Positions 5,809 to 43,728 are shown, numbered from the stretch's first letter. The stretch is 64,000 nt of DNA from Bacteroidota bacterium (GCA_030706745.1 JAUZNX010000006.1:140998-204997), one strand, 5' to 3'. The notes: generated by a model not told the origin, from the letters alone. Program-made: numbers and translations.

Positions 5809-6327
5809 TTACCAAAGGATGGCCATGGAAACAGAAAGGCCAACAATGGCCTGCGCCACAAGCGCATCGCGGGCGATCAAGGCCGATCGAGGTCGGAGAA
5901 GCCCAATGGGTGTCCAGTACGCCCAGCTAATTTGATGGCTCTGCAGGCCATTATAGACCCTGTTCTCCCATGAGCCATGCGAAGGAGGATTGAGCGCATA
6001 AGCCCAACCATAATATCCGAGATCGTCGCCCCAGGTCCACCAAATTAGATTGAATGCGATCGCCGAACTCAGACCACATGTCTTGTACAAAAAATATGTG
6101 ATCGCGGCCTGCGCCACGCTCTGAATGCCATGATAGACCCACGCAATATTGTGCAACTGCCGGACATCGAGATTGAAGCCGACATAATCGAGCAATGAAA
6201 ACGCAAGTGACGAGCCAATTACATATTCGATCCGTTGCACGCGCAAGCGATCCTGGGCTCGGGTGCTGGAAGCAAGGAGCAGAAGGCAAATAGCCATGAG
6301 AAGAAAGAGGCGCAGACAATTCACCAA
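5809..6327 (-). CDS. Small secreted/membrane protein, paralog 1 of a tandem array of four (unknown family; WWTWGDDLGYYGW motif; C-terminal ...SMAILW)
   Basis: Signal-peptide-like N-terminus then AQD. About 75% identical to paralog 4. TTG start inferred. Confidence 0.6.
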   Translation of the reverse strand: MVNCLRLFLLMAICLLLLASSTRAQDRLRVQRIEYVIGSSLAFSLLDYVGFNLDVRQLHNIAWVYHGIQSVAQAAITYFLYKTCGLSSAIAFNLIWWTWGDDLGYYGWAYALNPPSHGSWENRVYNGLQSHQISWAYWTPIGLLRPRSALIARDALVAQAIVGLSVSMAILW

Positions 6328-6851
6328 AGGAATGCCAATGAAATTGAAAACCCGACGATTGCCTGAGCAACAATCGTGCTCCGTGCGATGGAACTTCCTT
6401 TTGGTCGCACCATTCCAATTGGTGTCCAGGATGCCCAGCTGATTTCGGGATTATTCCGCAAGCCGTTATCGGTCCGATTGAGCCATGGCGATGGCAAATT
6501 AAGCGCATCAGCCCAACCATAAAATGCCAGATCATCTCCCCATGTCCACCAAGTCAAATCGAAGGCGAGTGCCGCAGGCAGGCCGCAGGTCCGATACAGA
6601 AAATAATTAATGGCCACACCAAGAGAACTTTGCAGAATATGATAGACCATCAACCCCGAACTTCCGTTATCAAAGTTGAAGACGGTTCGTCCGCCGCTAT
6701 ATGCAAGAAAATCGAACAATGAAAATGCCGCCGTCGCGCCAATCACATATTCGAACCGTTGCGCACGCAAGCTATCCTGGGCTCGCACCACCTGGCCCGA
6801 GGCAATTCCAACGAGGAGAACACTAAGAACCAATTGTCGAACGGTCACCAT
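6321..6851 (-). CDS. Small secreted/membrane protein, paralog 2 (start refined to the internal ATG giving MVTVRQLVLSVLLVGIASG...)
   Basis: Same conserved blocks: WWTWGDDLAFYGW, WTPIGMVRP, C-terminal ...LAFLW. Its start abuts the stop of paralog 3. Confidence 0.6.
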   Translation of the reverse strand: MVTVRQLVLSVLLVGIASGQVVRAQDSLRAQRFEYVIGATAAFSLFDFLAYSGGRTVFNFDNGSSGLMVYHILQSSLGVAINYFLYRTCGLPAALAFDLTWWTWGDDLAFYGWADALNLPSPWLNRTDNGLRNNPEISWASWTPIGMVRPKGSSIARSTIVAQAIVGFSISLAFLW

Positions 6852-7351
6852 AAGATACTCATGGAAAGTGCAAATCCGACCGCCGCCTGACCATACAACG
6901 CGTCGCGTGGGATGATGCTGTTGGGAGGCCTCATGAGCCCGATCGGAGTCCACCCTGCCCAGCGAATCGCATTATCACGCAAGTTATTATCGAGGTTTCG
7001 ATTCGGCCATGGAGCGGCCGGATTAATTCCGAGCTGATATCCATAAAAAGCGAGATCGTCGCCCCAGGTCCACCAGACAAGATTGAACGCGATTGCCGAG
7101 TTCAGACCACAGGTCTTATACAAGAAGTAGGAAATTGCCGCTTGTGCTACAAGTTGTAGACTCCGGTAGACCACTTTGCTATTACCCGGGTGATTGTAGA
7201 TGTCGAGATTCCAGCCCAGATAATCAGCAAGCGCAAACGTCAGTGAGGCACCGACGACATACTCGATCCGCTGAACACGCGTGCTATCCTGCGCCTGCAC
7301 GTCGGTCGCCAGAAGCATTGTGAGGACGACTGGTATGATGATCGTTCTCAT
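6845..7351 (-). CDS. Small secreted/membrane protein, paralog 3 (start refined to ATG giving MRTIIIPVVLTMLLATDVQAQD...)
   Basis: Same conserved blocks. ATG at 7349–7351 confirmed on the printed sequence. Confidence 0.6.
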   Translation of the reverse strand: MRTIIIPVVLTMLLATDVQAQDSTRVQRIEYVVGASLTFALADYLGWNLDIYNHPGNSKVVYRSLQLVAQAAISYFLYKTCGLNSAIAFNLVWWTWGDDLAFYGYQLGINPAAPWPNRNLDNNLRDNAIRWAGWTPIGLMRPPNSIIPRDALYGQAAVGFALSMSILW

Positions 7352-7356
7352 AGGCT

Positions 7357-7875
7357 TCACCAGAGAATTGCCATTGAAACGGAGAATCCAACCATCGCTT
7401 GCGCAATCAAAGCATCGCGGGCGATGAGGCTGCCTGGCGGGCGCAACACACCGATGGGTGTCCAACTGGCCCACGTAATGTGATTACTTCGAAGACCATT
7501 TCCCTCCCGGTTCTCCCAAACCCCAACGCTTTGCTTCCCGGGATTGAGCGCATTCGCCCAGCCATAATAACCGAGATCATCGCCCCATGTCCACCAAATC
7601 AAATTGAATGCGATCGTCGATGGTAAGCCAAATTTTTCGTAGAGTAAATAGCTCATTCCGGCCTGTACTGAGGATTCTATGAGTCGATACCATATCGGCG
7701 CGTGACCGTTTACATTATCGACGCGAGCGAGACTATACCCGACATAATCGGCAAGCGAGAATGCGACTGATGCGCCAATGACATATCCTAAACGTGCGAA
7801 GCGCGCACTATCCTGGGCCCGCGATGGCGAGCCGAAACACAAGAGAACGAGTAGGATAACTTCAAACGACCGCAT
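7357..7875 (-). CDS. Small secreted/membrane protein, paralog 4
   Basis: MRSFEVILLVLLCFGSPSRAQD signal, same conserved blocks, C-terminal ...SMAILW. Confidence 0.6.
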   Translation of the reverse strand: MRSFEVILLVLLCFGSPSRAQDSARFARLGYVIGASVAFSLADYVGYSLARVDNVNGHAPIWYRLIESSVQAGMSYLLYEKFGLPSTIAFNLIWWTWGDDLGYYGWANALNPGKQSVGVWENREGNGLRSNHITWASWTPIGVLRPPGSLIARDALIAQAMVGFSVSMAILW

Positions 7876-19671: not shown

Positions 19672-20280
19672 TTATGTCCTGACAAATTCTGTAAGTAGTG
19701 AATAATTGCCATCATCTGCCGCGTGAAGGGCTTCGATGTATCGGTCGCGGGTTTCGCTCATTCGAGAGAGCGATTCGCTTCCCCAGGTAAATGGCGCTTG
19801 GCCATATTGCATGAGCAGAAGCTCCGTCAGCTCGCGCGCATGCCGGCCGTTTCCATTTTTGAAGTAATGGACTTTTACGATGCGATGATGAAACTCCGCA
19901 CCAAGCCGGTTCCATTCTGCTTGCGTTTTGGGTCTCGCGTGCTGCAATCGATACCGGAAGTCAGCAAGGATGTTCTCTGTTGCAGTAGCTATGATGTAGT
20001 AATCGGCAAATTTTTCATTCTGAAGCTGAACAATTCGGCGTTTGCCAGCCCATTTCCACACATCTCCGTACATTCGTTTATGCAGACGCTCCATGAATGC
20101 AGTTGTTAATAGGTCGCCATGCTTGCGAGCCCTCGACCACGCTCGGGACATGACGATATTCTGAAATTCCACCTCGTTGAGTTGCGACTGAGTTGCGATG
20201 TTCTTTGGGATCAGATCGCTCTCGTCGTTCGGGTCAATTGGTGTGGCACCTTCGGAATAATCGAATATCATTTCACCCAC
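19672..20280 (-). CDS. Fic-domain protein, 'mobile mystery protein B' type
   Basis: Fic motif HYFKNGNGRHAREL, about 200 aa. Immediately downstream of, and overlapping, the HTH partner. Confidence 0.7.
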   Translation of the reverse strand: MGEMIFDYSEGATPIDPNDESDLIPKNIATQSQLNEVEFQNIVMSRAWSRARKHGDLLTTAFMERLHKRMYGDVWKWAGKRRIVQLQNEKFADYYIIATATENILADFRYRLQHARPKTQAEWNRLGAEFHHRIVKVHYFKNGNGRHARELTELLLMQYGQAPFTWGSESLSRMSETRDRYIEALHAADDGNYSLLTEFVRT

Positions 20281-20723
20281 CTCCAGATCAGGCGCGGGTT
20301 ATTTTCGAGTTTGAGAATAAGCTCCTCTCGTGAGCCACTGACTTCAACCGATTGACCTTCGAGGTCCATTGATTGGTCGACGCCCTTCATCATTGCATCC
20401 GCTGCTTGCTCTGCGGCCTTGTGAAGTGTTTCTTCCAGCGGGCGCTTCGGAACGATCGCATAGACGAATAGGCAATCGAGCGTTTCCGCCGCACTTTGGA
20501 GCGAGGCAAGCGTAATGCTCCGATCGGCCTCTCTTTTCTCGATACGCTCGATTGCTTGAGGCGTCACTCCAATCCTATCTGCCAACGTTCGGAGCGGCAT
20601 CCCCAATGATTGACGAATGGCATGAAGCCATCCCCTCGCAGGGGCAGCGATCGTGGGGAAACTACCTACATTAAGGAGTACTTCGTCGAGTTGCTTTCTT
20701 TGAATCCTTTTACTCATTCGCAT
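20268..20723 (-). CDS. HTH (XRE-like) protein, 'mobile mystery protein A' type
   Basis: LRTLADRIGVTPQAIERIEK helix-turn-helix. Overlaps the Fic partner by 13 nt. Confidence 0.6.
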   Translation of the reverse strand: MRMSKRIQRKQLDEVLLNVGSFPTIAAPARGWLHAIRQSLGMPLRTLADRIGVTPQAIERIEKREADRSITLASLQSAAETLDCLFVYAIVPKRPLEETLHKAAEQAADAMMKGVDQSMDLEGQSVEVSGSREELILKLENNPRLIWRWVK

Positions 20724-20914
20724 ATCAACCCATATGTTTAAGTAACGATTCCTATTAACAACCTATATGTTGATTCTCACTAAGTGTCTTTCAACGTATA
20801 CGTAGAAGGCTTTGATAATCCAATTAACACCATCAAGCTTACAGCGCAAATTTATGAATGTCCACTGCCAGAACAATAAACTTATCCACAAACTGAGCCT
20901 TACTATATATTTTT

Positions 20915-21087
20915 ATGATGTCGTTGCAACACCGTGACCATCGAACAACGTTGTAATAGATGGAAGGGGTACTCTCGATTTATCGAGTTATTTCTGTGGG
21001 ACATTCGCCCGTTACTGGGGTCCAGTCAATTGAAATAGAACGGATCGGGATTTCACCTTTTGTTTGGAGTTCATTGACAATTGAAAT
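20915..21087 (+). promoter_or_regulatory. Conserved ~175-nt leader element, copy A (upstream of sdhA), preceded by the TATA-like box tatatat at about 20903–20909
   Basis: 88–95% identical to the reverse complement of 34204–34379. Contains two direct CAATTGAAAT repeats 51 nt apart. Confidence 0.7.
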
Positions 21088-21278
21088 ACCCTCATACCTC
21101 GCATTTAGCGGCCAATTGGATGCCCTGAACGAGATTGCTTCGTCGGCCTTCGGCCTCCCCGCAATGACGGCTTCAGAAAAACATCGCGTTCGTGTCGTAT
21201 TTTTGCAGGACAAAGGCGTTCTCCAAACGCAACCAGGGTTGCGTTCACCTCTGTTTGAAGGCGCGACGAAAGGAATTA

Positions 21279-23048
21279 ATGACACATCAATTCGACGTAA
21301 TCATAGTAGGCGCGGGCGGTGCAGGGCTTCGCGCGGCGGTGGAAATTCCTGCTGGCTACACGTGCGCGGTGCTGACGAAAGTGCATCCGCTCCGCTCGCA
21401 TACCGGCGCGGCCCAAGGCGGCGTCTGCGCTGCGCTGGGCAATCAGGAAGAGGATAATCCTGAGTGGCACGCATACGATACCGTCAAAGGCTCTGATTAT
21501 CTCGGCGATCAGGATGCAATCGAAACGATGTGCAACGATGCACCGCGCGCTGTGATCGAGTTGGAGCATATGGGCATGCCATTCTCTCGAACTGAGGAAG
21601 GCAAGATTGCGCAACGCAAGTTCGGCGGTCATACCCGTCCGACCGATCCGAACGATCCGGACTCAAAGCGAGTCGCAGTCATGCGCGCGTGCTACTCCGC
21701 GGACCGGACTGGCCATGTGATGCTACACACGCTCTATGAGAACTGCCTCAAGAACAATGTCAACTTCTTCAGCGAGTTTTTTGCGACGGAGTTGCTCTAT
21801 GAGAACGGCGTCTGCTCGGGCGTCATCGCAATCGAAATTCTGACCGGCGCGATTCATACCTTCCATGCAAAGGCTGTGATGTTCGCCACCGGCGGCGATG
21901 GCCGCATCTGGCGCATCACCTCGAACGCCCACGTCGGCACCGGCGATGGTTTCATGCTGACCTACAACGCAGGTCTGCCACTTGAAGACATGGAATTTAT
22001 GCAATTCCATCCGACGGGATTGTGGAAGCTTGGCATTCTGGTGAGCGAAGCAGCTCGCGGCGAAGGCGGTATCCTTCGCAATAAAGATGGTGAGCGTTTC
22101 ATGGAGCGCTACGCGCCGACCGTGAAAGATTTGGCTCCGCGCGACATGGTTTCGCGCGCAATCATTCAGGAGATTCGCGAAGGCCGCGGCATCAAGGGCT
22201 CCGATGGCACATTTTACATTGACCTCGATCTGACCCATTTGCCGGCATCGGTCATCAACGAGAAGCTTCCGGAAATCACTGGATTTGCGCGGACCTATCT
22301 TGGCGTCGAACCGACGACTGAAGGCGTGCCGATCCAGCCGACCGCGCACTATGCGATGGGCGGAATTCCGACTGACGTTGATGGTCAGGTGCGCAGCAAC
22401 AGCGGCGATGGCCTTGCGCGTGGATTCTATGCTGCGGGCGAGTGCGCTTGCGTTAGCGTTCATGGTGCGAATCGACTCGGCACGAATTCGCTGCTTGATA
22501 TCATCGTCTTTGGACGTCGAGGCGGTAAGGCAATTGCGAATTACCTGAAGGCTGGCGCGGAGTATGCGAAACTCCCGGCAACGGCCGGCGAGTGGACCCG
22601 CTCGAAGATCGATGAGATCAAGTCGCGCGCAACCGGCGAGAAACCCGCGCCAATCCGCACCGAATTGCAGCAGATCATGATGGATGACTGCGGTATTTTC
22701 CGCACCGCTAAAGGCTTAGAGAGCGTTCGTGATAAGATCGTCGGTCTTCGCGAACGATATTCTCGCGTCGTGATCGATGACAAGGGTATGCAATTCAATA
22801 CCGATCTGCTCGAAGCGATCGAGCTTGGCAACTTACTCGATACAGCTAACGTGGTTGTCAATTGCGCGTTAAATCGCGAGGAAACACGCGGTGGTCATGC
22901 CCGAGAGGACTTCCCTGAGCGAGACGATAAGAATTGGATGAAGCATACATTTGCCTCCAAGGGAAATCAGTCGGGCTTTGCGGCCCCAACCCTCGAATAC
23001 CGGCCTGTCGCTGTGACGAAGTACAAGCCAAAGAAACGCGTCTATTAG
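21279..23048 (+). CDS. sdhA: Succinate dehydrogenase/fumarate reductase flavoprotein subunit (SdhA/FrdA family); no sdhB/sdhC adjacent
   Basis: FAD-binding VIIVGAGGAGLRAA, RSHTGAAQGG, HYAMGGIPTD, 589 aa. ATG at 21279 after AAGGAA. Confidence 0.85.
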   Translation: MTHQFDVIIVGAGGAGLRAAVEIPAGYTCAVLTKVHPLRSHTGAAQGGVCAALGNQEEDNPEWHAYDTVKGSDYLGDQDAIETMCNDAPRAVIELEHMGMPFSRTEEGKIAQRKFGGHTRPTDPNDPDSKRVAVMRACYSADRTGHVMLHTLYENCLKNNVNFFSEFFATELLYENGVCSGVIAIEILTGAIHTFHAKAVMFATGGDGRIWRITSNAHVGTGDGFMLTYNAGLPLEDMEFMQFHPTGLWKLGILVSEAARGEGGILRNKDGERFMERYAPTVKDLAPRDMVSRAIIQEIREGRGIKGSDGTFYIDLDLTHLPASVINEKLPEITGFARTYLGVEPTTEGVPIQPTAHYAMGGIPTDVDGQVRSNSGDGLARGFYAAGECACVSVHGANRLGTNSLLDIIVFGRRGGKAIANYLKAGAEYAKLPATAGEWTRSKIDEIKSRATGEKPAPIRTELQQIMMDDCGIFRTAKGLESVRDKIVGLRERYSRVVIDDKGMQFNTDLLEAIELGNLLDTANVVVNCALNREETRGGHAREDFPERDDKNWMKHTFASKGNQSGFAAPTLEYRPVAVTKYKPKKRVY

Positions 23049-23194
23049 TAGTGGATAGTTGATAGTGGGTAGTGGACAGTTGAAATGCACAGAGTGGAGA
23101 TTGATCGATGAGAAGCGGATGCTGCCAATAGTATGGGCACTATCCATTTTCCTCTATTCACTATCCACTATTATCTACCCACTATCATCTACTG
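23048..23194. repeat. Long imperfect inverted repeat built from GTGGATAGT-type units (hairpin), copy 1
   Basis: Left arm gtagtggatagttgatagtgggtagtggacagttg pairs with right arm cactatccactattatctacccactatcatctactg. Related in sequence to 41350–41466. Confidence 0.7.
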
Positions 23195-23829
23195 CGCAGA
23201 ACATGCCGCGTGAGGCGGGATTTCTGTTTGCAGCGAACGGTCAAGCGTCACTGGTGAAGAGCAATGATATCAATCGCGGATTCTTCACGAACCCGACGAT
23301 CGAGCACTTCTACTATAGCTTTGAGACCAATGGTGTGCAGTCGCTCTCGATCTTTCTCGAGCATATTAATGAAACTCGAAATTGGAGCGGCATTTGGACT
23401 GATGCGCAAATACTCGGTGGCTCCAAGAACTTTCCAGCGAGCGTATCAGAGAATCTCCAGGTGACCGTGATCGGTTTGGAGACAAATCGGACGCTCATCA
23501 CGGCATCCGATTTTCGTCTCGGTGCTGGATTTGGATTGGGCTTCGGTCTCGGTGGTGCATCAGCGGATGTCACACACGATACGACAAATATTACCGACAC
23601 ACACACATCGGAGACTGCATGGCAGGCGCTCCTAATGGCCGCGTCACTCCGGGCGCGTTACACGATTTGGACTGGTGGCAAATATGAAATCGCGATTGTC
23701 GCGTTGGGTCGAGTATGGTACTTTCCTTATATCGGCCCTATCGGCAGTGCAAGTCGTTCATATAACGGCCCCGGCTTGCGTACCCTAAGTGAATATGGCT
23801 ATCTGGCCGGTCTTGCGTTCGGATTCTGA
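23119..23829 (+). CDS. Putative outer-membrane beta-barrel protein. Start uncertain: ATG at 23119 gives a signal peptide; alternative ATG at 23203 sits just after the hairpin.
   Basis: Gly-rich strands (GAGFGLGFGLGG), C-terminal ...GLAFGF ending in F. Confidence 0.5.
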   Translation: MLPIVWALSIFLYSLSTIIYPLSSTAQNMPREAGFLFAANGQASLVKSNDINRGFFTNPTIEHFYYSFETNGVQSLSIFLEHINETRNWSGIWTDAQILGGSKNFPASVSENLQVTVIGLETNRTLITASDFRLGAGFGLGFGLGGASADVTHDTTNITDTHTSETAWQALLMAASLRARYTIWTGGKYEIAIVALGRVWYFPYIGPIGSASRSYNGPGLRTLSEYGYLAGLAFGF

Positions 23830-33557: not shown

Positions 33558-34118
33558 TTAACCCTCATCGAATTCCAACTGATACTTCGCCAGCCGCTTC
33601 CGAAGAAACTGAACAGCCCGGTGCTTCCGCGCCAAGAGCGTGTTCAGATTTTCTCCAGTCGCTTCGGAAATTTCGCGGAAACTGACGCCTTCCATCTCGT
33701 TCATCACGAAGATCTCGCGTTGCTTCGCCGGCATCTCGGCCAGCGCATCGATAAACGCTTCGTAGGCGTCGCTCGCTGCGAGATCGCTCAGCGCATTGCT
33801 CGTCGATCGCGCCGTCCGCTCGATCTCCGGTGTAATCCGCTCGGTTTTGTGCTTGCGGTACCAGTCGATGATCCGGTTTCGCGCAGCCCTGGCAAGCCAG
33901 GCGCCGGCGTCCTCGATGATCATGTCCGGACTCCCGACCGCGTTCGATGAGCGCAGAAGGCTCAGGAACACGTCCTGCACGATGTCCTCGGCAGTTTCGA
34001 GATCTCGCACGCGTGATGACACAAATCGGACGAGCGACTGCCGGGCAGCCTCGAGCCGTTTCGAGCCCTCAGCCTTACCCAGTCCCTTGATATCGCTAAG
34101 CGTCAGTTCCGCTGTCAT
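33558..34118 (-). CDS. RNA polymerase sigma-70 factor, ECF subfamily
   Basis: Region 2 DIVQDVFLSL...IIDWYRK and region 4 REIFVMNEMEGVSFREISEATGENLNTLLARKHRA. Confidence 0.85.
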   Translation of the reverse strand: MTAELTLSDIKGLGKAEGSKRLEAARQSLVRFVSSRVRDLETAEDIVQDVFLSLLRSSNAVGSPDMIIEDAGAWLARAARNRIIDWYRKHKTERITPEIERTARSTSNALSDLAASDAYEAFIDALAEMPAKQREIFVMNEMEGVSFREISEATGENLNTLLARKHRAVQFLRKRLAKYQLEFDEG

Positions 34119-34203
34119 TGTTATGGTGATTGACGTCTATGGACGTGAAAAATTGCTCGTTTGTTTCAGGTCTCGGTGTGGAGCATGCTTCAGCTTGCCC
34201 CAA

Positions 34204-34379
34204 ATTTCAATTGTCAATGAACTCCAAACGAAAGGTAGAATCCCGATTCGGTCTGTTTCAATTGACTGGACCCCAGTAACGGGCGAATGTCCCACTGAAA
34301 CAAACACTACAAATCGAGAGGCCCCCCTTCACCCCATATATAACAAGGTTCGAGGGTCCAGGTGTTGCAATGACATCAT
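34204..34379 (-). promoter_or_regulatory. Conserved ~175-nt leader element, copy B (upstream of the ECF sigma gene), preceded on the minus strand by TATAAT. An extra partial 34-nt copy lies at 34451–34484.
   Basis: Reverse complement aligns base-for-base with 20915–21087. Same CAATTGAAA direct repeats. Confidence 0.7.
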
Positions 34380-34762
34380 CTAATTATATACTTTAGCTCA
34401 TTTTGTGTATAAGCTTATTATTCTTTCACATCACATTCATCATTACGGAAGAGCCCCCCTTCCATCTATTACAACGTTGTTCGACCCATCCGGCATCGCA
34501 TATTTTCGATGAATTCTGCAAATAATCGTTGGGACCAATCGACAAGCTCCCGCCGGTCCCCGCCTCGGAGAGGCGGCGCTGTGTAGCGCGGCGCGGAAGC
34601 GCCGTGAAGCGCCACCCCGCCGCGCCGGGCGCTCCACCACCACCCGCCCAACACACCCGCACTCCCGCCGTGCGTGGGGAAGTGCCCGCTTCTACGCTCC
34701 AGAAATTCCTGCATGCGCAGCTTTTTGCCGTAAGTTTGCTATGACTGTACGAAAGGAGAATC

Positions 34763-36652
34763 ATGTACCTCTCTAATATTAAGCTCTGGAATTTCCGAAA
34801 GTACGGACGCGCGGGTCAAGAGTCAACGCTCGATCTTCGGAACCCCCACTTGAGTCTCGACTTCTCGAATGGGCTCAATGTTCTGATCGGTGAGAACGAC
34901 TCGGGGAAATCAGCTATCATTGATGCAATTAAGCTCACGCTCAAGACGCAAAGCTACGAGTGGTTGAGAATTGAGCGAGAGGATTTTTTCAATGACTCCG
35001 CCAAGCTGAGAATAGAATTAGAGTTCGACGGTTTTAAGGACATCGAAGCAAAGAACTTTACTAAATGGTTAGGATGGAAAGAGAAGACTACCGAGACCGG
35101 GTCTAAGGAGAAGGTGCCATACTTGCGCTTGGTTTACGAGGTACAGCGCAAACTGGAGGAGGGAAGAATATTACCATCTGACGTGAGGGCTGGCGTCGAT
35201 GACGAGTGTTATCTTCTCGATGCCGGCGCAAAAGAATACCTGAAAGTCACTTACCTCAAGCCATTGCGCGATGCCGAGAGCGACTTGACCCCAAAGAGGA
35301 ATTCAAGACTGTCACAAATTCTTGCGAGCCACGAGGCTTTTAAGGGCAAAGAAACAACTCATTTTTTGGTCCGTCTTTTCGAGAGATTCAATGATTCCAT
35401 CCTTGGATATTTTGAAGGCGTGGACGTTGGGACTGACGGTAGCGAAGCGCCATCCCAGGATCAAGAAGGTAAGAAGCTGAAGGACAAAGTCGATAGTCTG
35501 CTCAGTGAGATGTACGATGAATCGAAAGAATCTAACTTTGATGTAACTTCGAAGAAGGAAGTAAAGGAGATTCTTGAGAAGCTCGAGTTGAGCTTGAAAA
35601 ATGACTTGAACCCTGGGCTCGGCACCCTGAACCGACTTTTTGTTTCTTCTGAATTGCTTCACCTTGAGAAGAAGGATTGGACTGGGCTACGCCTCGGCCT
35701 CATCGAAGAACTCGAAGCTCACCTTCATCCTCAGGCTCAAATGCGTATCATTGCGGCACTCCGAGAGATAAGCGGTACTCAACTGATTCTCACCACGCAC
35801 AGTCCGAATATTGGTTCAAAGGTCAAGTTAAAAGAATTGATCTTGTGTAGTGGCGACAATGTCTTTCCGATGAAGGATGGTTGCACCAGACTCAAAAGCC
35901 CCGACTACACATTTCTTGAGAGATTTCTCGACGCAACGAAAGCAAATCTATTTTTCGCGAAAGGAGTCATCCTTGTCGAAGGGTGGGCAGAGGAAATTCT
36001 GATTCCGGCTCTCGCCAAGGCCATTGATTGCGACCTTACGAAGAAGGGTGTTTCCGTCGTTAATGTCGGGAACCTCGCCTTCTTGCGATATTCCAGCATC
36101 TTTCAAAGGCAGGCTCCTCCCCCCATGGAGATGCCTGTGGCCGTCGTAACCGACCTCGACATTATGCCTGAGGATGAAGGTGCTGACGCAGAAAGTAAAA
36201 CAACAACCAAGAAGGCGAAGTACGATGGCGTACCAGTAAAAACATTCGTCTCCCCGCATTGGACCTTGGAGTACTGTATTGCAAGATCGACTAAACTCCG
36301 AAGGACATTCTACAAGGCAATCTTGGAGGCATTGCGTGAGAAAAAGGAGGATGAAGGAATGAGCGAGACCGGATTGGCAGAATATGTCACGGCAATTACG
36401 AATATAGACGTGCACTTCAATGGTTGGAGTAAGAGTGAAGCTGAGATAGCCAGTTCGATCTATTCTCAAATTTTGGGAGAAGCCAAGGTGCTGGAATTGG
36501 CCAGGGGCAAGATTTCGAAGACTATCATTGCCCAGCATTTCGCCAAGCTCCTGGATGAAGGGGCAGTTGCGAAGACTGATATCGAGACCGACACTAATAT
36601 TTCTTATCTCATCGATGCCATAAAGTATGCCTGCCGCGTTAGTAGTCACTAA
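34763..36652 (+). CDS. gajA: OLD-family ATP-dependent endonuclease, Gabija GajA-like (ABC-type ATPase + TOPRIM)
   Basis: N-terminal IKLWNFRKY...GENDSGKSAIIDAI (Walker A), LIEELEAHLHPQAQ (Walker B/H-loop), TOPRIM GVILVEGWAEEILIPALA. Strong SD AAAGGAGA before ATG 34763. GC lower than its surroundings. Confidence 0.8.
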   Translation: MYLSNIKLWNFRKYGRAGQESTLDLRNPHLSLDFSNGLNVLIGENDSGKSAIIDAIKLTLKTQSYEWLRIEREDFFNDSAKLRIELEFDGFKDIEAKNFTKWLGWKEKTTETGSKEKVPYLRLVYEVQRKLEEGRILPSDVRAGVDDECYLLDAGAKEYLKVTYLKPLRDAESDLTPKRNSRLSQILASHEAFKGKETTHFLVRLFERFNDSILGYFEGVDVGTDGSEAPSQDQEGKKLKDKVDSLLSEMYDESKESNFDVTSKKEVKEILEKLELSLKNDLNPGLGTLNRLFVSSELLHLEKKDWTGLRLGLIEELEAHLHPQAQMRIIAALREISGTQLILTTHSPNIGSKVKLKELILCSGDNVFPMKDGCTRLKSPDYTFLERFLDATKANLFFAKGVILVEGWAEEILIPALAKAIDCDLTKKGVSVVNVGNLAFLRYSSIFQRQAPPPMEMPVAVVTDLDIMPEDEGADAESKTTTKKAKYDGVPVKTFVSPHWTLEYCIARSTKLRRTFYKAILEALREKKEDEGMSETGLAEYVTAITNIDVHFNGWSKSEAEIASSIYSQILGEAKVLELARGKISKTIIAQHFAKLLDEGAVAKTDIETDTNISYLIDAIKYACRVSSH

Positions 36653-38651
36653 CGGTGACATCGAATACGCCGAGGGTATTCTGTTGCCCGCCGGCATGAC
36701 GTTCGATGATGAACGTCGGGCCTTCATTCGCAATTTTGAAACCATAGACCTTCAGGCCGTTCCAGGAAGTGGCAAGACAACAGCGCTCCTTGCCAAACTG
36801 CTGATTATCGAGAAGCATCTGCCTCTGAATGACGGATCTGGGGTCCTGGTACTTTCGCACACAAACGCAGCAGTGGATGAGATCAAGAATGCAATTGGCA
36901 TCCACTGTCCGAAGCTATTCGCGTATCCTAACTACGTCGGCACAATACAGAGCTTCACAGATAAATTCCTTGCAATACCCTACGGACACAACTGTCTCGG
37001 AGTTAGATTTGACCGTGTCGATTCAGAAGCTTTTTCGGAGAGGCTTTGGAAGAACTTCCGTCTCGTGCAACAACGCGAAGATTTCGGAAGTCTCGGGAAG
37101 TGGTTCTATGGCATGCACATTGCGACCGCGAAAGAAATCGCCGGAGAGAATAAGCCAGAGGTTAGGCGCCTCTGCAATGCGTTGATCGAAGCGCACGTGA
37201 AAAATATTCGTTACGACTACAACGAGGAATGCTTTAGGAATGGGATTGATGGTAAAGCGCTCCTGAAGTCGAAGACCAATCCAAAATTTAATGCACTGCT
37301 GGCGATTACTCAAGAAACTTTCGCCGAGGGTTATCTTTCGTTTGATTACGCCTATATCCTTGCCAAGCATTATCTCATTCTTGTCCCTGAGCTTACCCCA
37401 ATTGTGAGAAAGCGATTCCCATACGTCTTCGTTGATGAGATGCAAGATATGGATCCCCACCAATACACCTTGTTAGAGACGCTTTTTGCACCTTCGGGGC
37501 CTCATCAACCCATTTATCAAAGGATCGGAGACAAGAACCAAGCGATATACGAGGGGCTTACCGGGGAGATTTGGCAGGATCGAGCGCCTGATCGAATACT
37601 CTCCCTAAAAGGGTCATATCGCTTGAGCAGTCAAGTCGCAAAAGTCGTGCAGCCATTCGCCCTCACTCCTATAGCAATAGATGGGCGGCGGGAGCTTCGT
37701 GTGCCAATTAAGCCTTGCTTGTTGGTTTATACCGAGCCTTCGCACGTGATTAATGAGTACATCCGAATTATCCGAACGCATGTCGACTCCGGGGCTATTC
37801 CATCCAATACAGCAAATGGGTTCCATGCAATCTGTTGGGTGACGAAAGAGAAAGAGACGGAAACGACACTCTCTAGATACTTTGCTGATTTCAAGCGTGT
37901 CAAACAAGAGTCAGGTTCAAATTATTATTGCCTTAGGGCTTACTTCGATGCGATGGATCCGGTAAGTCAGTGCGTGAGAGCAATACGTAGTCATCTCATC
38001 AACGCCATTCTGAAGGTGTTACGACTTGAAGATATACGCGATGAGAACAATAGATACTATACGCAAGCGCGCTTTCTTCGCCAATTGAATCAACTTGACC
38101 TCACGCGAGATACAAAATATTCGGACGAATTTAATTTTCAGCTCTTTCAATGGTGCAGTGCGGTGGCAAACGGGAAGACTACTGAGGCCCTGAGGGACCT
38201 GCGCATCTTCCTTCCTAATCTGTTGGGCTGGCTTGACAAGACTCTTACGAAAGCGGACGCGATCACATTTGTCAATGCAGACTCAGCATCGAGTCAATCG
38301 GTTGGGGAGAATACCTCCGAAAGTCGAGATGTAAACGTTGCCATCGAGCCATCGGGAGACATTAGGATTGAAGTGTCAAACGTTCACGCAGTAAAGGGAC
38401 ACACGCACACAGCAACGTTGTACATGGAGTCCTTTTACCAGAAAATGTATGAGTCATCCAGACTCCCCGGACCTTTCCTGAATGGCAGTGCTAAGATCAA
38501 AGGAACGTACCAGAATGAAACCGCAAGGTTGCTCTACGTAGGTTTCTCGCGTCCGACGCATCTGCTTTGCTTCGCGGTTCACAAGGAGCGATTTGAAGCT
38601 CATTTAAGTGCGATTGACAGAGATATTTGGGAAATCGTGGAGGTATCGTGA
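36627..38651 (+). CDS. gajB: UvrD-like superfamily-1 helicase, Gabija GajB-like. Alternative start ATG at 36696.
   Basis: Walker A AVPGSGKTTAL. Motif II VFVDEMQDMD. IGDKNQAIY, SYRLSSQV, VHAVKGHTHTATL, LYVGFSRPTHLL match the GajB/UvrD motif set. Overlaps gajA by 26 nt. Confidence 0.8.
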   Translation: MPAALVVTNGDIEYAEGILLPAGMTFDDERRAFIRNFETIDLQAVPGSGKTTALLAKLLIIEKHLPLNDGSGVLVLSHTNAAVDEIKNAIGIHCPKLFAYPNYVGTIQSFTDKFLAIPYGHNCLGVRFDRVDSEAFSERLWKNFRLVQQREDFGSLGKWFYGMHIATAKEIAGENKPEVRRLCNALIEAHVKNIRYDYNEECFRNGIDGKALLKSKTNPKFNALLAITQETFAEGYLSFDYAYILAKHYLILVPELTPIVRKRFPYVFVDEMQDMDPHQYTLLETLFAPSGPHQPIYQRIGDKNQAIYEGLTGEIWQDRAPDRILSLKGSYRLSSQVAKVVQPFALTPIAIDGRRELRVPIKPCLLVYTEPSHVINEYIRIIRTHVDSGAIPSNTANGFHAICWVTKEKETETTLSRYFADFKRVKQESGSNYYCLRAYFDAMDPVSQCVRAIRSHLINAILKVLRLEDIRDENNRYYTQARFLRQLNQLDLTRDTKYSDEFNFQLFQWCSAVANGKTTEALRDLRIFLPNLLGWLDKTLTKADAITFVNADSASSQSVGENTSESRDVNVAIEPSGDIRIEVSNVHAVKGHTHTATLYMESFYQKMYESSRLPGPFLNGSAKIKGTYQNETARLLYVGFSRPTHLLCFAVHKERFEAHLSAIDRDIWEIVEVS

Positions 38652-38660
38652 GGTGTGGGT

Positions 38661-38781
38661 AACTCGCGCTCAGGGTCGAGCGTCGCGGGGCTGGCGGGTC
38701 TTTGGAGCCTCAGCCATGCCCATGGTTGCTCATTGCAACGCTAGCAAACGAACAGGGTGGTGCTACCGGGAGTTCGGGCGC
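38661..38781. repeat. Direct repeat R1 (~120 nt) immediately after the gajB stop
   Basis: aactcgcgc..cgcggggctggcgggtctttggagcctcagccatgcc ... gctcattgcaacgctagcaaacgaacagggtggtgctaccgggagttcgggcgc repeated at 40398–40542. Confidence 0.85.
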
Positions 38782-38809: not shown

Positions 38810-40096
38810 CTACGTGATGCTTCCAGCGGGATAGAGCGCGGGAAAGATATACGGGACTGCTTTGATCGGAAAAGTTAGCCGAAGCGCGCCAAGCGGAGTG
38901 AGTGAAGTGACAAGTTCCAGTTTGGTGAGAGCCTGCGTAATTCTCCTTGCGGAGCGATCCGATGTACCAGTCAGCCTGGCTACCTCGCTTCGCGGAAGTT
39001 CTCCTCTTAAGAAAATCTCCGTAAGAAGATATTTCGCGCTCGTGTCGAGCACTCCTTGCAACGCAAGAAGTTCGACATATTGCGTAAGACGATCGAGCAT
39101 CGCGTTGGTCTCGAGCAGACCAGACATAAAGTTCACTTGATCGATTGCAACATCGAGCAAAAAATCGACGAAGTCATCCAGTCCGCGTTGCGAGAGATTG
39201 CCGCGTCCATCATAATTGTTGTAACGGGGTGCATCTGCGGCCTCCAGTGCTTTATAGTATTCCTCCCTTTTCCGCGCAATACCGCGGGAGAGCGACCACA
39301 GCCCATTACTATCCAGATCTGCCCTCATAAAATAGAGGTGCGTAAAAAGCCTGACAACCCGTCCATTCCCATCTAAGAAGGGATGGATCCACGCGAGTCG
39401 GTGATGTGCTGCAATAGCGGCGATAATTCTCTTCACGGAGCCGAGAGGAGTTGGAGAATAGACTTCGTGAAATCGCTCCATGAACTGAGGGATCGAGGAG
39501 TGCTGCGGCGGAACATGCTTGCCGACTTGCACATCATCCCGTCTAAATTTGCCTGGCACGACTTTCAGCACGTTGCCGGCAGTCGCACGGACTAATTTGA
39601 ATTCTTCCGGGAGCTTATCGTAAAAGCTTTTGTGCATGCTCAGGAGAAACTCCGGTGACGCAACATCGACATCTGAAGAATCTCGTAGCTCTCGCTCAAA
39701 CTGTTCCTGCACCTCGATATGTGCTCGCCCTTCAATCTGCAACGCCTTCTTGCGAGGCTCCGCAGAGTAATCGTTCTTTTGTGCGCGCTCGAGGTCCAAT
39801 GGATGCGTGACATTTCCCTCGATGAGATTGGAATAATAGCTATTCATCAGCCGAAGGAGCTGAGAGGTCTGACGCTGGGTGATGGGATGGAGTTTGCCCG
39901 AAAGCTGTTGCGATCGTTTGAGGAGTTCAACCGCTTTCTCTTCGAGACTTGGGCGGGCGGGCCACATCGGCTCCATTTGAGAGATTCCGCTGTACATGGG
40001 CATCACAGCCTTCCGGGCCACTGATTTCCCATTTAGCTTGGCACTTTTGGCCGACTTATTGGCCGACTTATTGGCCGACTTATTGGCCGACTTCAT
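38810..40096 (-). CDS. Fic family protein (Fic domain + C-terminal winged-helix) with a KSAN-repeat N-terminus encoded by a 12-nt tandem repeat. Alternative starts at internal Met residues (MPMYSG...).
   Basis: Fic motif HPFLDGNGRVVRL. ATG at 40096 confirmed. 428 aa. Confidence 0.8.
   Translation of the reverse strand: MKSANKSANKSANKSAKSAKLNGKSVARKAVMPMYSGISQMEPMWPARPSLEEKAVELLKRSQQLSGKLHPITQRQTSQLLRLMNSYYSNLIEGNVTHPLDLERAQKNDYSAEPRKKALQIEGRAHIEVQEQFERELRDSSDVDVASPEFLLSMHKSFYDKLPEEFKLVRATAGNVLKVVPGKFRRDDVQVGKHVPPQHSSIPQFMERFHEVYSPTPLGSVKRIIAAIAAHHRLAWIHPFLDGNGRVVRLFTHLYFMRADLDSNGLWSLSRGIARKREEYYKALEAADAPRYNNYDGRGNLSQRGLDDFVDFLLDVAIDQVNFMSGLLETNAMLDRLTQYVELLALQGVLDTSAKYLLTEIFLRGELPRSEVARLTGTSDRSARRITQALTKLELVTSLTPLGALRLTFPIKAVPYIFPALYPAGSIT
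40047..40093. repeat. 12-nt tandem repeat (TTGGCCGACTTA, about 4 copies) lying in-frame in the first codons of the Fic gene
   Basis: Read directly. Encodes (KSAN)n. Confidence 0.9.
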
Positions 40097-40232: not shown

Positions 40233-40285
40233 GGACATAAACCATTGGAACTCTATTACGTTTGGCTTTGCCAAACGTAATAGAG
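40233..40285. repeat. Perfect palindrome: 25-bp stem with 3-nt loop (ccattggaactctattacgtttggc ttt gccaaacgtaatagagttccaatgg)
   Basis: Read directly, no mismatches. Confidence 0.9.
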
Positions 40286-40299
40286 TTCCAATGGTAGCA

Positions 40300-40397: not shown

Positions 40398-40542
40398 GCG
40401 TGGGCCGAACTCGCGCCCCGGGTCACATCGGCGCGGGGGCTGGCGGGTCTTTGGAGCCTCAGCCATGCCACCAATAGCATGATAGGTCATCCCTAATTGC
40501 TCATTGCAACGCTGGCAAACGAACAGGGTGGTGCTACCGGGA
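40398..40542. repeat. Direct repeat R2 (~145 nt, with an approximately 22-nt internal insertion relative to R1), 50 nt upstream of the AbrB-like gene
   Basis: Same sequence blocks as R1. Confidence 0.85.
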
Positions 40543-40591
40543 GTTCGGGCGCCTTCAACGAATGTGGTCTCGCTCGTGTTATGGAATCACT

Positions 40592-41081: not shown

Positions 41082-41349
<268 letters not shown>

Positions 41350-41351
<2 letters not shown>

Positions 41352-41466
41352 TGGATAGTTGATAGTGGAGAGTGGATAGTTCTACTCGTCTGCTATCTTC
41401 TTTGTGGCATGGCCGCATGAACGGCCCTGCACACTATCCACTTTCCACTATACACTATCCACTATA
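41350..41466 (+). promoter_or_regulatory. rpsO–pnp intergenic long hairpin (about 31-bp imperfect stem of GTGGATAGT-type units, about 54-nt loop containing a GGCCG/CGGCC sub-hairpin) ending at the pnp ATG
   Basis: Left arm agtggatagttgatagtggagagtggatagtt pairs with right arm cactatccactttccactatacactatccactata. Confidence 0.7.
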
Positions 41467-43728
41467 ATGAAATACGACGTACAGTACGGCAACGGCAAAT
41501 CGATGCAGTTCGATGTAGGCCGGTATGCCAAGCAATCGAACGGATCCGTGATGGTCCGTCTCGGCGACACGATGTCGCTGGTCAACGCAGTCGCCGCCGA
41601 AAAGGAAAAAGAAGGCATTGACTTTATGCCGCTGCAGGTAGAATTCCGCGAGCGCGCGGCTGCCGCCGGCAAGATTCCGGGAGGCTACTTCAAGCGCGAA
41701 GCCCGCCCAACCGAGAAAGAAATTCTCTCCGCCCGTCAGATCGATCGTCCGATCCGCCCGATGTTCCCGAAGGACTGGCGCGTCGAGACGCAGATCGTCG
41801 CGACCATCTTCTGTTCCGATCAGGAGCACGATGCCGACACGATCACCGCAACTGCGGCCTCGCTTGCGCTGCTCATCTCCGACATTCCATTCGAAGAGCC
41901 GGTCGCGGAAGTACGCATTGCACGCGTCAACGGCCAGATCATCATCGATCCGACCTACACCGAACTTCAAACGGCTGACTACGAGTTCGTCGTCGCCGGG
42001 ACGAAGGATTCGATCCTGATGGTTGAAGGCGAGTCGCACGAGATCAGCGAGACCGAGTTTATCGAAGCGCTCCGCGCCGGCTCGAACGCCGTTCGTGAAC
42101 TCTGCATCGGTCAGGAGCGCATCGTCAAAGAGTGTGGCCTCGCAAAGCCGAAGCGCATCAAGGACGAGCACATCATGGACCCGGCGCTCATCGCGCAGGT
42201 CGAAGCCCTTGCCGCGCCAAAGCTGCGCGAGCTTGCCAAGACTGTGCTCGCAAAGGAAGAACGCTCACTGCAAACGCACTCGGCCCGTGACGCAACACGC
42301 AAGGCACTCACCGAGACTGTCGGCGAGTTGCAGTTCGAGCACATCCGCGGCGATGTCGATCATATCCTGTATGACATCGAGAAGCGTGAGATGCGTAATA
42401 TGATCCTGGATAACAACCATCGTCTCGATGGACGTAACTCCACGCAAATTCGTCCGATCGAGTGCGAAGTTGCCGTTCTGCCACGCGTGCATGGCTCTGC
42501 TGTCTTCCAACGCGGTGAGACGCAATCGCTGACAAGCTGCACGCTTGGCACCAAGCGCGACGAGCAGAACATCGAGGGTCTCTTCCCCGAGACGACCAAG
42601 CGGTTCATGCTGCATTACAATTTCCCGCCGTATTCCGTCGGTGAGGTTGGACGTTACAGCGGAACCGGTCGCCGCGAAATCGGCCACGGCAATCTCGCCG
42701 AGCGCGCGATCAAGTTGCTGCTTCCGACCGTCGAAGAATTTCCATATACGCTCCGTATCGTGAGCGATATTCTCGAAAGCAACGGATCGAGTTCCATGGC
42801 GACGGTTTGCGCCGGCACGCTGGCACTCTTCGATGCTGGTGTACCGCTGAAGAAGCCCGTGAGCGGCATTGCGATGGGCCTCATCAAGGAAGGTGATCGC
42901 GTCGCGATCCTTTCGGACATTCTCGGTAACGAGGATCATCTTGGCGACATGGACTTCAAAGTCTGCGGCACGCGTGATGGTATCACCGCCTGCCAGATGG
43001 ATATGAAGATCAAGGGCATCGACTTCGATCTGCTCGAGAAGGCGCTGATGCAAGCGCGCGATGGCCGCTTGCACATTCTCGGCAAGATGGCGGAGGCTCT
43101 CTCGGGACCGAAATCCGAGCTCTCGCAATACGCGCCGCGTCTCACGACAGTCAAGGTGCCGGTCGATTGTATCGGACTCGTCATCGGACCTGGTGGCAAG
43201 ACGATCCGCCAGATTCAGGCCGATGCTGGCGTCGAGATCAACATCGAGGAAGATGGAACGGTCACGATCGCTGCGCTTTCGGGCGAGGCGTCGGATCGCG
43301 CAAAGCAGTTTATTATGGCGCTCGTCGCGGAGCCGGAAGAAGGCGGGACCTACTCCGGTCGCGTCACCCAGGTCCGCGAAGGACTGGGTGCGATCGTCGA
43401 ATTCCTTCCCAAGAAGGAAGGCTTGCTCCATATTTCGGAGATCGATTACCAGCGCGTCGAGAACGTCTCGGATGTCATCCAGGTGGGTGATGTCTTTGAC
43501 GTAAAGCTCATCGCTGTCAAGCCCGACGGCAAGTTCTCGCTGTCGCGCAAGGCGTTGCTTCCGGTACCGGAAGGCTACGAGGAGCGTCCACGTGAGCGCC
43601 GCGAAGGCGGCGGCGACCGCGGTGGTTACGGCGACCGACGCGGTGGCGGCGATCGTCGTGGCGGCGGAGATCGCGGCGGCGACCGGCGCAATGGAGGTGG
43701 CGGCGGATTCCGCGACCGAAGGAATTAA
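41467..43728 (+). CDS. pnp: Polyribonucleotide nucleotidyltransferase (PNPase) with RGG/RGD-rich C-terminal tail
   Basis: Two RNase PH domains, KH and S1 domains. ATG 41467 confirmed. Tail ...GGGDRGGYGDRRGGGDRRGGGDRGGDRRNGGGGGFRDRRN. Confidence 0.95.
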   Translation: MKYDVQYGNGKSMQFDVGRYAKQSNGSVMVRLGDTMSLVNAVAAEKEKEGIDFMPLQVEFRERAAAAGKIPGGYFKREARPTEKEILSARQIDRPIRPMFPKDWRVETQIVATIFCSDQEHDADTITATAASLALLISDIPFEEPVAEVRIARVNGQIIIDPTYTELQTADYEFVVAGTKDSILMVEGESHEISETEFIEALRAGSNAVRELCIGQERIVKECGLAKPKRIKDEHIMDPALIAQVEALAAPKLRELAKTVLAKEERSLQTHSARDATRKALTETVGELQFEHIRGDVDHILYDIEKREMRNMILDNNHRLDGRNSTQIRPIECEVAVLPRVHGSAVFQRGETQSLTSCTLGTKRDEQNIEGLFPETTKRFMLHYNFPPYSVGEVGRYSGTGRREIGHGNLAERAIKLLLPTVEEFPYTLRIVSDILESNGSSSMATVCAGTLALFDAGVPLKKPVSGIAMGLIKEGDRVAILSDILGNEDHLGDMDFKVCGTRDGITACQMDMKIKGIDFDLLEKALMQARDGRLHILGKMAEALSGPKSELSQYAPRLTTVKVPVDCIGLVIGPGGKTIRQIQADAGVEINIEEDGTVTIAALSGEASDRAKQFIMALVAEPEEGGTYSGRVTQVREGLGAIVEFLPKKEGLLHISEIDYQRVENVSDVIQVGDVFDVKLIAVKPDGKFSLSRKALLPVPEGYEERPRERREGGGDRGGYGDRRGGGDRRGGGDRGGDRRNGGGGGFRDRRN

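Follow-up and report, generated by a model that had tools for sequence, protein, structure and literature searches.

The window analysed here is a 64,000-nt stretch of a contig from a Bacteroidota bacterium, and the nearest named relatives of the proteins that it encodes are Kapabacteria. Two of its intergenic regions, 13 kb apart, carry copies of the same non-coding unit of about 235 bp in opposite orientations (Table 1). Copy A separates an HTH_3 gene (151 aa) and a Fic gene (202 aa) from sdhA, which encodes a succinate dehydrogenase/fumarate reductase flavoprotein, while copy B separates the Gabija gene gajA from an ECF sigma factor gene. The assignments of the two genes downstream of the copies, made earlier from the DNA alone, were both confirmed.

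Table 1. Positions of the repeat, its internal features and the adjoining genes and promoters in the window
Feature	Position	Strand	Remarks
Copy A	20854–21087	+	234 nt; between the divergent HTH_3/Fic genes and sdhA
Copy B	34204–34440	−	237 nt; inverted relative to copy A; between gajA and the ECF sigma gene
Third, partial copy	34450–34484	−	35 nt; 9 nt upstream of copy B
Near-invariant core	20996–21036	+	40/41 positions identical between copies A and B; copy B equivalent ~34255–34295 (−)
Invariant 3′ block GTTTGGAGTTCATTGACAATTGAAAT	21062–21087	+	26/26 identical; 3′ strand of the basal stem; homology ends right after it
Predicted hairpin, copy A	20919–21079	+	extended, imperfect; consensus structure, 49 pairs
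Predicted hairpin, copy B	34212–34375	−	extended, imperfect; MFE −59.9 kcal/mol
Box 1	21027–21035	+	CAATTGAAA; within the near-invariant core of copy A
Box 2	21078–21086	+	CAATTGAAA; within the invariant 3′ block of copy A
TATATT hexamer	20906–20911	+	inside copy A; aligns with TATAAT 34388–34383 (−) of copy B
HTH_3 gene	20268–20723	−	left of copy A; divergent from sdhA; overlaps the Fic gene
Fic gene	19672–20280	−	left of copy A; divergent from sdhA; overlaps the HTH_3 gene
sdhA	21279–23048	+	succinate dehydrogenase/fumarate reductase flavoprotein
ECF sigma gene	33558–34118	−	followed by a 133-aa gene, then obg
gajA	34763–36652		next to copy B
sdhA promoter motif CGTATTTTTG (TAnnTTTG)	21196–21205	+	outside the element; copy A ends 110 nt upstream
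Sigma gene promoter GAAAC-N17-CGTC (ECF-type)	34142–34167	−	outside the element; copy B ends 37 nt upstream

In blastn comparisons of each locus with the window, the two copies align over 240 columns at 80.4% identity (E 3e-58), and a repeat finder run on the window returned an inverted 100-nt pair of 92% identity between the two loci. A 20-mer from the core occurs exactly twice in the window, against none expected in shuffled sequence. The repetition is therefore real and far beyond chance, as the original prediction held, but the span and identity given there need revision. Homology begins 61 nt further upstream, at 20854 in copy A and 34440 in copy B, and identity over the span first described (20915–21087) is 83.0% rather than 88–95%. 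Conservation is uneven, with 72% identity over the first 61 nt (20854–20914), 71% over 20915–20987 and 92%, the only value in the range first reported, over 20988–21087. Two blocks reach 98–100% identity, and the homology has an abrupt 3′ edge. The TATA-type hexamers, right after which the element was thought to begin, consequently lie inside the repeat; the tatatat run noted next to copy A is present, with its first base at 20904 and not 20903. The distances from the element to the start codons hold (191 nt to the ATG of sdhA and 85 nt to that of the sigma gene), and the sequences that fill them are unrelated between the two loci.

The 35-nt fragment beside copy B is 94% identical to positions 20941–20975 of copy A, and this stretch of copy A is nearer to the fragment than to the equivalent stretch of copy B itself. 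The fragment includes a 10-bp palindrome, ACAACGTTGT. No further full copy was found in the 72 kb searched of the 160-kb contig (the window plus 8 kb to its left), and a covariance model built from the two copies detected no more diverged ones in the window, in the 8 kb to the left or at the corresponding loci of relatives. The term repeat family thus rests on 2.15 copies, as the 72 kb hold only two full copies and one fragment. An assembly artefact was considered and rejected: the copies show 20% divergence as well as indels, and the gene neighbourhood found around them in the window is shared by four assembled contigs.

The element is non-coding. All three forward frames read contain stops, the indels that separate the copies disrupt any frame and tblastx gives equal identities across all six frames, which bears out the reported lack of a conserved reading frame; a coding remnant was rejected. 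Searches for a tRNA, tmRNA or integration-target gene found none. The covariance models of Rfam 15 gave no match at gathering score in the whole window, and at E ≤ 10 only noise fell over the element at the two loci (snoR116, 15.6 bits; HIV_POL-1_SL, 14.6 bits; SCARNA7; HOTAIRM1_3). Each copy does contain the two CAATTGAAA repeats 51 nt apart and the GGGACATTCGCCCGTTACTGGGGTCC core that had been described, the latter invariant between the copies. These CAATTGAAA boxes are the sole four in the window, where 0.87 would be expected, and one of them forms a perfect palindrome, TCAATTGA. Copy A also holds a perfect DnaA box (TTATCCACA), but the window has about as many of these boxes as expected (10 versus 9.3), and a role as a replication origin was rejected.

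Within each copy, an AT-rich 5′ part of about 60 nt with a promoter-like hexamer is followed by a hairpin part of about 165 nt. The hexamers stand just before the hairpin, so placed that the predicted start coincides with the hairpin foot. In copy B, TATACA-17-TATAAT scores 10/12 as a sigma-70-like promoter, and its equivalent in copy A was counted at 8/12. The Chlorobi share a Bacteroidetes-type RpoD with a looser −7 consensus, TA[ATC][ATC][AT]T (bioRxiv 10.1101/172254), which both TATAAT and TATATT fit. It is possible, judging by these matches, that the hexamers represent a distal promoter of the element's own. The forward strand of the element has no Bacteroidota-type TAnnTTTG motif. Likewise, no ECF-type GAAAC-N16-18-CGTC motif occurs in the element or upstream of sdhA, the sole relevant match being the sigma gene's own promoter. 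No intrinsic terminator is present at the 3′ edge of the element or between the element and the genes. On the opposite strand, at 20902–20929 (−) and 34365–34392 (+), TTGCAA-16-TATAGT/TATACT is kept in both copies (9/12) and points outward to the Fic and Gabija genes; the relevance of a sigma-70-like motif in a lineage that uses TAnnTTTG is doubtful.

On the gene-facing strand, RNAalifold predicts a consensus hairpin of 49 pairs from the two copies, none of them broken in either copy, although the program picks a structure that fits both. About a fifth of the pairs are G-U, and the differences between copies A and B at paired sites consist of two compensatory and seven one-sided but compatible changes. 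The consensus energy is −39.8 kcal/mol, against −22.95 kcal/mol on the opposite strand. When one copy was kept and the observed substitutions were relocated at random, either freely or within the same thirds of the element, the observed energy was matched in 0/300 trials, and then in 0/200, 4/200, 0/200 and 0/200. Folded by itself, copy B has a z-score of −2.34 and a centroid equal to the MFE structure, with a z-score of 0.09 for its reverse strand; copy A (z +0.16) folds no better than shuffled sequence. A covariation control returned 130/500 shuffles, a statistic without power for only two sequences. The near-invariant core forms the apical stem-loop of the predicted structure, with the loop GUUACUG. 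The basal arms, TGTCRTTGCAACACC and the complement of GGAGTTCATTGACA, match at about 12/15 positions with G-T pairs included, and the homologous unit runs 61 nt past the 5′ arm. Taken together, the predictions are suggestive of a common fold of copies A and B, and the modelled strand asymmetry favours a feature at the level of RNA, or of single strands, over a plain DNA palindrome.

Relatives were compared at three loci with the sigma gene (protein identity 78% in L004, 75% in L007 and 64% in L008) and four with sdhA (92% in L011, 85% in L012, 86% in L013 and 86% in L017). Neither the spacers before the sigma gene in L004, L007 and L008 nor those before sdhA in L012, L013 and L017 contain the element. 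L011, a 2-kb contig whose sequence starts 192 nt ahead of sdhA, retains GTTCTTTGACAATTGAA, which matches 16/17 nt of the invariant 3′ block (0–1/300 shuffles score as high), as well as GTAACTCGGGGTACA, which matches GTTACTGGGGTCCA at the right spacing. When the first 80 nt of L011 were aligned end-to-end with the 3′ half of the element, 7/2000 shuffles did as well for copy A and 0/2000 for copy B. The rest of the L011 spacer has diverged beyond recognition, and the retained blocks suggest some constraint on the sdhA copy. In L012, a box-1-like TCCAGCTCATTGAAATAG precedes sdhA, with a score that 11/300 shuffles reach.

Exact-word scans with the invariant core and the 3′ block covered 185,579 species genomes (one per species), JGI metagenomes and IMG/VR, with the 35-nt fragment searched in the viral contigs only. 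They yielded chance matches only, and none for the 26-mer. A 20-mer match in a Spirochaetales MAG (L001) lies inside a binding-protein gene, and a metagenome match (L010) inside a membrane-protein gene; both were set aside as chance, as were three IMG/VR matches that do not extend past 18–20 nt. Phage and plasmid collections gave no blastn match to the element. By these searches the element is lineage-restricted, without a detected homologue in the genome, metagenome, viral, phage or plasmid collections.

Each of the two genes has a conserved promoter of its own downstream of the element and independent of it. Upstream of sdhA, the TAnnTTTG motif at 21198 corresponds to the −7 consensus for the primary sigma factor in Bacteroidetes (PMC7366714). 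A motif of the CGTATTTTTG type is kept upstream of sdhA in L011, L012, L013 and L017; in all of these and in the window, CGTA(T/A)TTTTG is followed by GTTCTCC. The same type of motif precedes gajA (TAAGTTTG at 34731, 32 nt upstream of the gene) and a DUF3667 gene (18807). Upstream of the sigma gene, the only sequence that the window shares with L004, L007 and L008 is a stretch of ~46 nt ending at the start codon; it holds the ECF-type promoter, and GAAAC-N16/17-CGTC is invariant in 4/4 sequences. The proposal of a shared leader, in which both transcripts would open with the element as their first ~175 nt, is therefore not supported: the conserved promoters lie downstream of the element and the hexamers lie inside the repeat, with homology running 61 nt upstream of the supposed −10 box. 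Neither copy stands between the start of transcription at these promoters and the start codon, and among the orthologous loci only L011 has a trace of the element, itself diverged. The main value of the finding is corrective: instead of a supported common leader, sdhA and the sigma gene each have a conserved promoter of their own, of the lineage-typical kinds (TAnnTTTG and ECF-type).

Both copies are intergenic and lie at junctions between core genes and accessory genes of defence type. Beside copy A, the Fic protein of 202 aa has a PADLOC match to PDC-S04, a candidate defence family (7e-26). Next to copy B, the Gabija system that had been noted there was matched in PADLOC and is complete (34763–38651; GajA 2e-215, GajB 7e-201); beyond it, a 428-aa Fic protein (38810–40096, −) matches SoFic (8e-36). 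Among 5.8 billion proteins, the nearest GajA homologue, from an Aminicenantes MAG, reaches only 58% identity, which is consistent with a horizontal acquisition of Gabija. At this distance the DNA flanks are not comparable, and delimiting the island by close GajA relatives was given up. The relatives carry other genes at both junctions. The two Fic proteins resemble each other only in the Fic motif region (40% over 65 aa) and are not close paralogues, so the islands beside copies A and B are not duplicates of each other. In L012 and L013, a BNR-repeat gene directly adjoins sdhA, and the 680-aa BNR gene of the window is in the opposite orientation; the arrangement suggests an insertion and an inversion to the left of sdhA. 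The sdhA gene itself has no adjacent sdhB or sdhC (21279–23829), and either its partner subunits must be encoded elsewhere or it must belong to an unusual flavoprotein system. It is followed by a gene for a protein of 230–242 aa without a Pfam match, which occupies the same place in L012 and L013.

The ERIC (IRU) elements of Enterobacteria are intergenic, non-coding imperfect palindromes of 100–200 bp that would form an RNA hairpin if transcribed and that have no transposase of their own. The BOX, RUP and SPRITE repeats of pneumococci are lineage-restricted intergenic families with tens to hundreds of dispersed copies (PMC3049150). The element shares with these families its non-coding, intergenic and lineage-restricted character, its imperfect palindrome with a predicted RNA hairpin and its lack of a transposase, and the 49-pair consensus, the z-score of copy B and the intergenic position of both copies agree with a hairpin repeat of the ERIC/REP/BOX type. 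Unlike them, with their tens to hundreds of copies, it is represented in the 72 kb read by two copies and a fragment, all within 13.6 kb; its duplicated unit also includes 61 nt outside the palindrome, and there is no sequence similarity. The Correia elements (CREE/NEMIS) of Neisseria have 26-bp terminal inverted repeats, a TA target duplication and more than 100 copies, and their transcript forms a long hairpin that is an RNase III substrate in Neisseria (PMC2649163). The element resembles CREE as a short unit upstream of genes with a conserved core, promoter-like hexamers, a long, here predicted, hairpin and possibly inverted ends. It differs from CREE in its basal arms, which pair at only ~12/15 positions with G-T pairs included, in having no target duplication and in its locally low copy number.

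A promoter-like box followed by a predicted strand-specific extended hairpin of ~165–170 nt, in copies that are 80–92% identical, also recalls sibling sRNAs and 6S-like RNAs. Unlike these, the element lacks a terminator and a central bubble of the 6S type, and it matches neither the 6S nor the 6S-Flavo model of Rfam. Riboswitch and attenuator leaders are likewise conserved structured sequences upstream of more than one gene and in gene orientation, whereas this element lies upstream of conserved promoters, is not conserved in relatives with the same genes, has no shared expression platform and matches no Rfam family.

The reading preferred here, held tentatively and with somewhat less than even confidence, is that of a young, lineage-restricted unit of about 235 bp that is either an intergenic repeat transcribed as a hairpin or a duplicated small-RNA unit. 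The copy upstream of sdhA would be the resident one, with a diverged trace in the nearest relative, L011. The inverted second copy and the 35-nt fragment would have arisen in this lineage 13 kb away, upstream of the ECF sigma operon, by duplication or recombination. The patchy identity and the A-like 35-nt patch beside copy B point to repeated exchange between the inverted copies, and the uneven identity (72% versus 92%) could mark a recent gene-conversion tract rather than selection. The part under constraint would be the RNA hairpin, or else the invariant apical loop and the 3′ block. The hairpin is presumed to be transcribed, and any function is likewise presumed; an effect on sdhA or the sigma gene, if there is one, would be exerted through an additional distal transcript or through bound factors and not through the main 5′ leaders of these genes. 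The alternative raised in the original prediction, that of a small element, duplicated or mobile, bordering acquired DNA, fits better than the leader in its defence-type neighbours, the nested fragment and the restriction to one lineage; no target-site duplication was found, nor, in the 72 kb read, many dispersed copies. No direct repeat is common to the flanks of copy A (caaattt / accctca) and those of copy B (cgtaatg / ttggggc), and the homology reaches 61 nt past the palindrome, so the duplicated unit is not a classical MITE.

The repeat could also have arisen without any function being involved: a piece of the sdhA spacer would have been copied to the sigma locus when accessory DNA inserted or recombined there, as a by-product of rearrangement at the junctions of the defence islands; the inverted copies would since have been partly homogenised by gene conversion, and the hairpin would be incidental. 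The placement of both copies exactly between core and defence-type genes (PDC-S04, GajA, GajB, SoFic), the distant GajA homologue from another phylum, the different genes at these junctions in relatives and the presence of other duplicated non-coding segments in the region (D4/D9, D6/D8) all agree with this account, as does the patchwork of 72%, 71% and 92% identity with the A-like patch beside copy B, which resembles repeated exchange. It is nevertheless considered unlikely, since the substitutions are placed so as to keep the common fold better than random placement does, and the blocks kept in L011 while the remaining spacer diverged suggest constraint on at least the sdhA copy. A further possibility, at the level of DNA, is that the CAATTGAAA boxes and the invariant core form a module of operator or upstream-activating sites, bound by one protein that would co-regulate sdhA and the sigma operon from upstream of their own promoters. 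The boxes are exclusive to the two copies and lie in the 98–100% identical blocks; box 2 with its flank is the best-conserved stretch upstream of sdhA in L011, a box-1-like motif precedes sdhA in L012 and sites for an activator or a repressor are expected just where the element lies, upstream of the conserved promoters of the two genes. But the four boxes are two duplicated pairs, so that their enrichment is not independent, and a similarity of 80–92% over 235 bp goes far beyond what an operator needs, which indicates common descent and not convergence. The boxes are also missing upstream of the sigma gene in L004, L007 and L008 and of sdhA in L013 and L017, their distances to the two promoters are unequal (110 nt versus 37 nt) and no regulator gene is linked to both copies. 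A shared operator is accordingly rated as distinctly unlikely.

A cis-regulatory RNA leader that starts at the inner TATA-type hexamer and continues through the hairpin into sdhA or the sigma operon, acting by attenuation, processing or ligand binding, is very unlikely. Its attraction lies in TATAAT and TATATT at the same aligned position, both fitting the Chlorobi −7 consensus (bioRxiv 10.1101/172254) and with a predicted start at the hairpin foot, in a fold specific to the gene-facing strand and in the possibility of read-through where no terminator precedes the genes. Against these stand the lineage-conserved promoters downstream of the element and the relatives that have the same genes without it, the lack of a match to any cis-regulatory Rfam family, the poor folding of copy A and the unrelated stretches of 191 and 85 nt to the start codons, which offer no common expression platform; a leader would also leave no place for the 35-nt fragment beside copy B. 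A bolder extension of the preferred reading, put forward as an improbable one, is an undescribed structured RNA of ~165–170 nt, an extended hairpin with an invariant apical GUUACUG loop and two CAAUUGAAA motifs; confined to a Kapabacteria-like lineage of the Bacteroidota, it would exist as sibling copies and link a respiratory flavoprotein with an ECF stress sigma operon, or alternatively be a hotspot mark for defence cassettes (Fic/PDC-S04, Gabija, SoFic). If the hairpin of the preferred reading is transcribed and functional, it would constitute a new family of small RNAs or structured repeats from an uncultured and little-studied branch of the Bacteroidota, and a seldom documented instance in which a regulatory or non-coding module was copied between core operons. 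If the element marks insertion junctions of defence genes, it could aid the definition of integration hotspots in such genomes.

A second, unrelated hairpin repeat family is present in the same region, at 23049–23191 and 41348–41468 (z −4.06 and −8.86), and duplicated intergenic hairpins are thus a feature of this genome. Its members contain iterated TAGTGGATAG-like motifs, with arms of ~33 nt that are 89–91% identical between the loci. The hairpin at 23049–23191 comes directly after the stop codon of sdhA and extends over the annotated start of a 236-aa gene; the spacers downstream of sdhA in L012, L013 and L017 (2–56 nt) are too short for it. The hairpin at 41348–41468 is located in the rpsO-pnp spacer. 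Direct repeats of ~95–117 nt that are 98–100% identical (38687–38781 and 40436–40552) flank the SoFic gene, and at 40241–40295 a perfect 26-bp inverted repeat encloses a 3-nt loop. The arrangement has the appearance of a cassette that was inserted beside Gabija, its flanks being duplicated. Between the 35-nt fragment and gajA, a spacer of 59% GC holds two GC-rich hairpins at a sub-threshold match to the Rfam Acido-Lenti-1 RNA motif (34561–34606, −; 22.2 bits versus a gathering score of 37; E 0.005–0.01), which may be due to chance. At 5809–7875 (−), four tandem paralogous genes of ~162–176 aa without a Pfam match are seen as periodic repeats of ~520 nt with 66–83% identity (repeat families D1 and D2).
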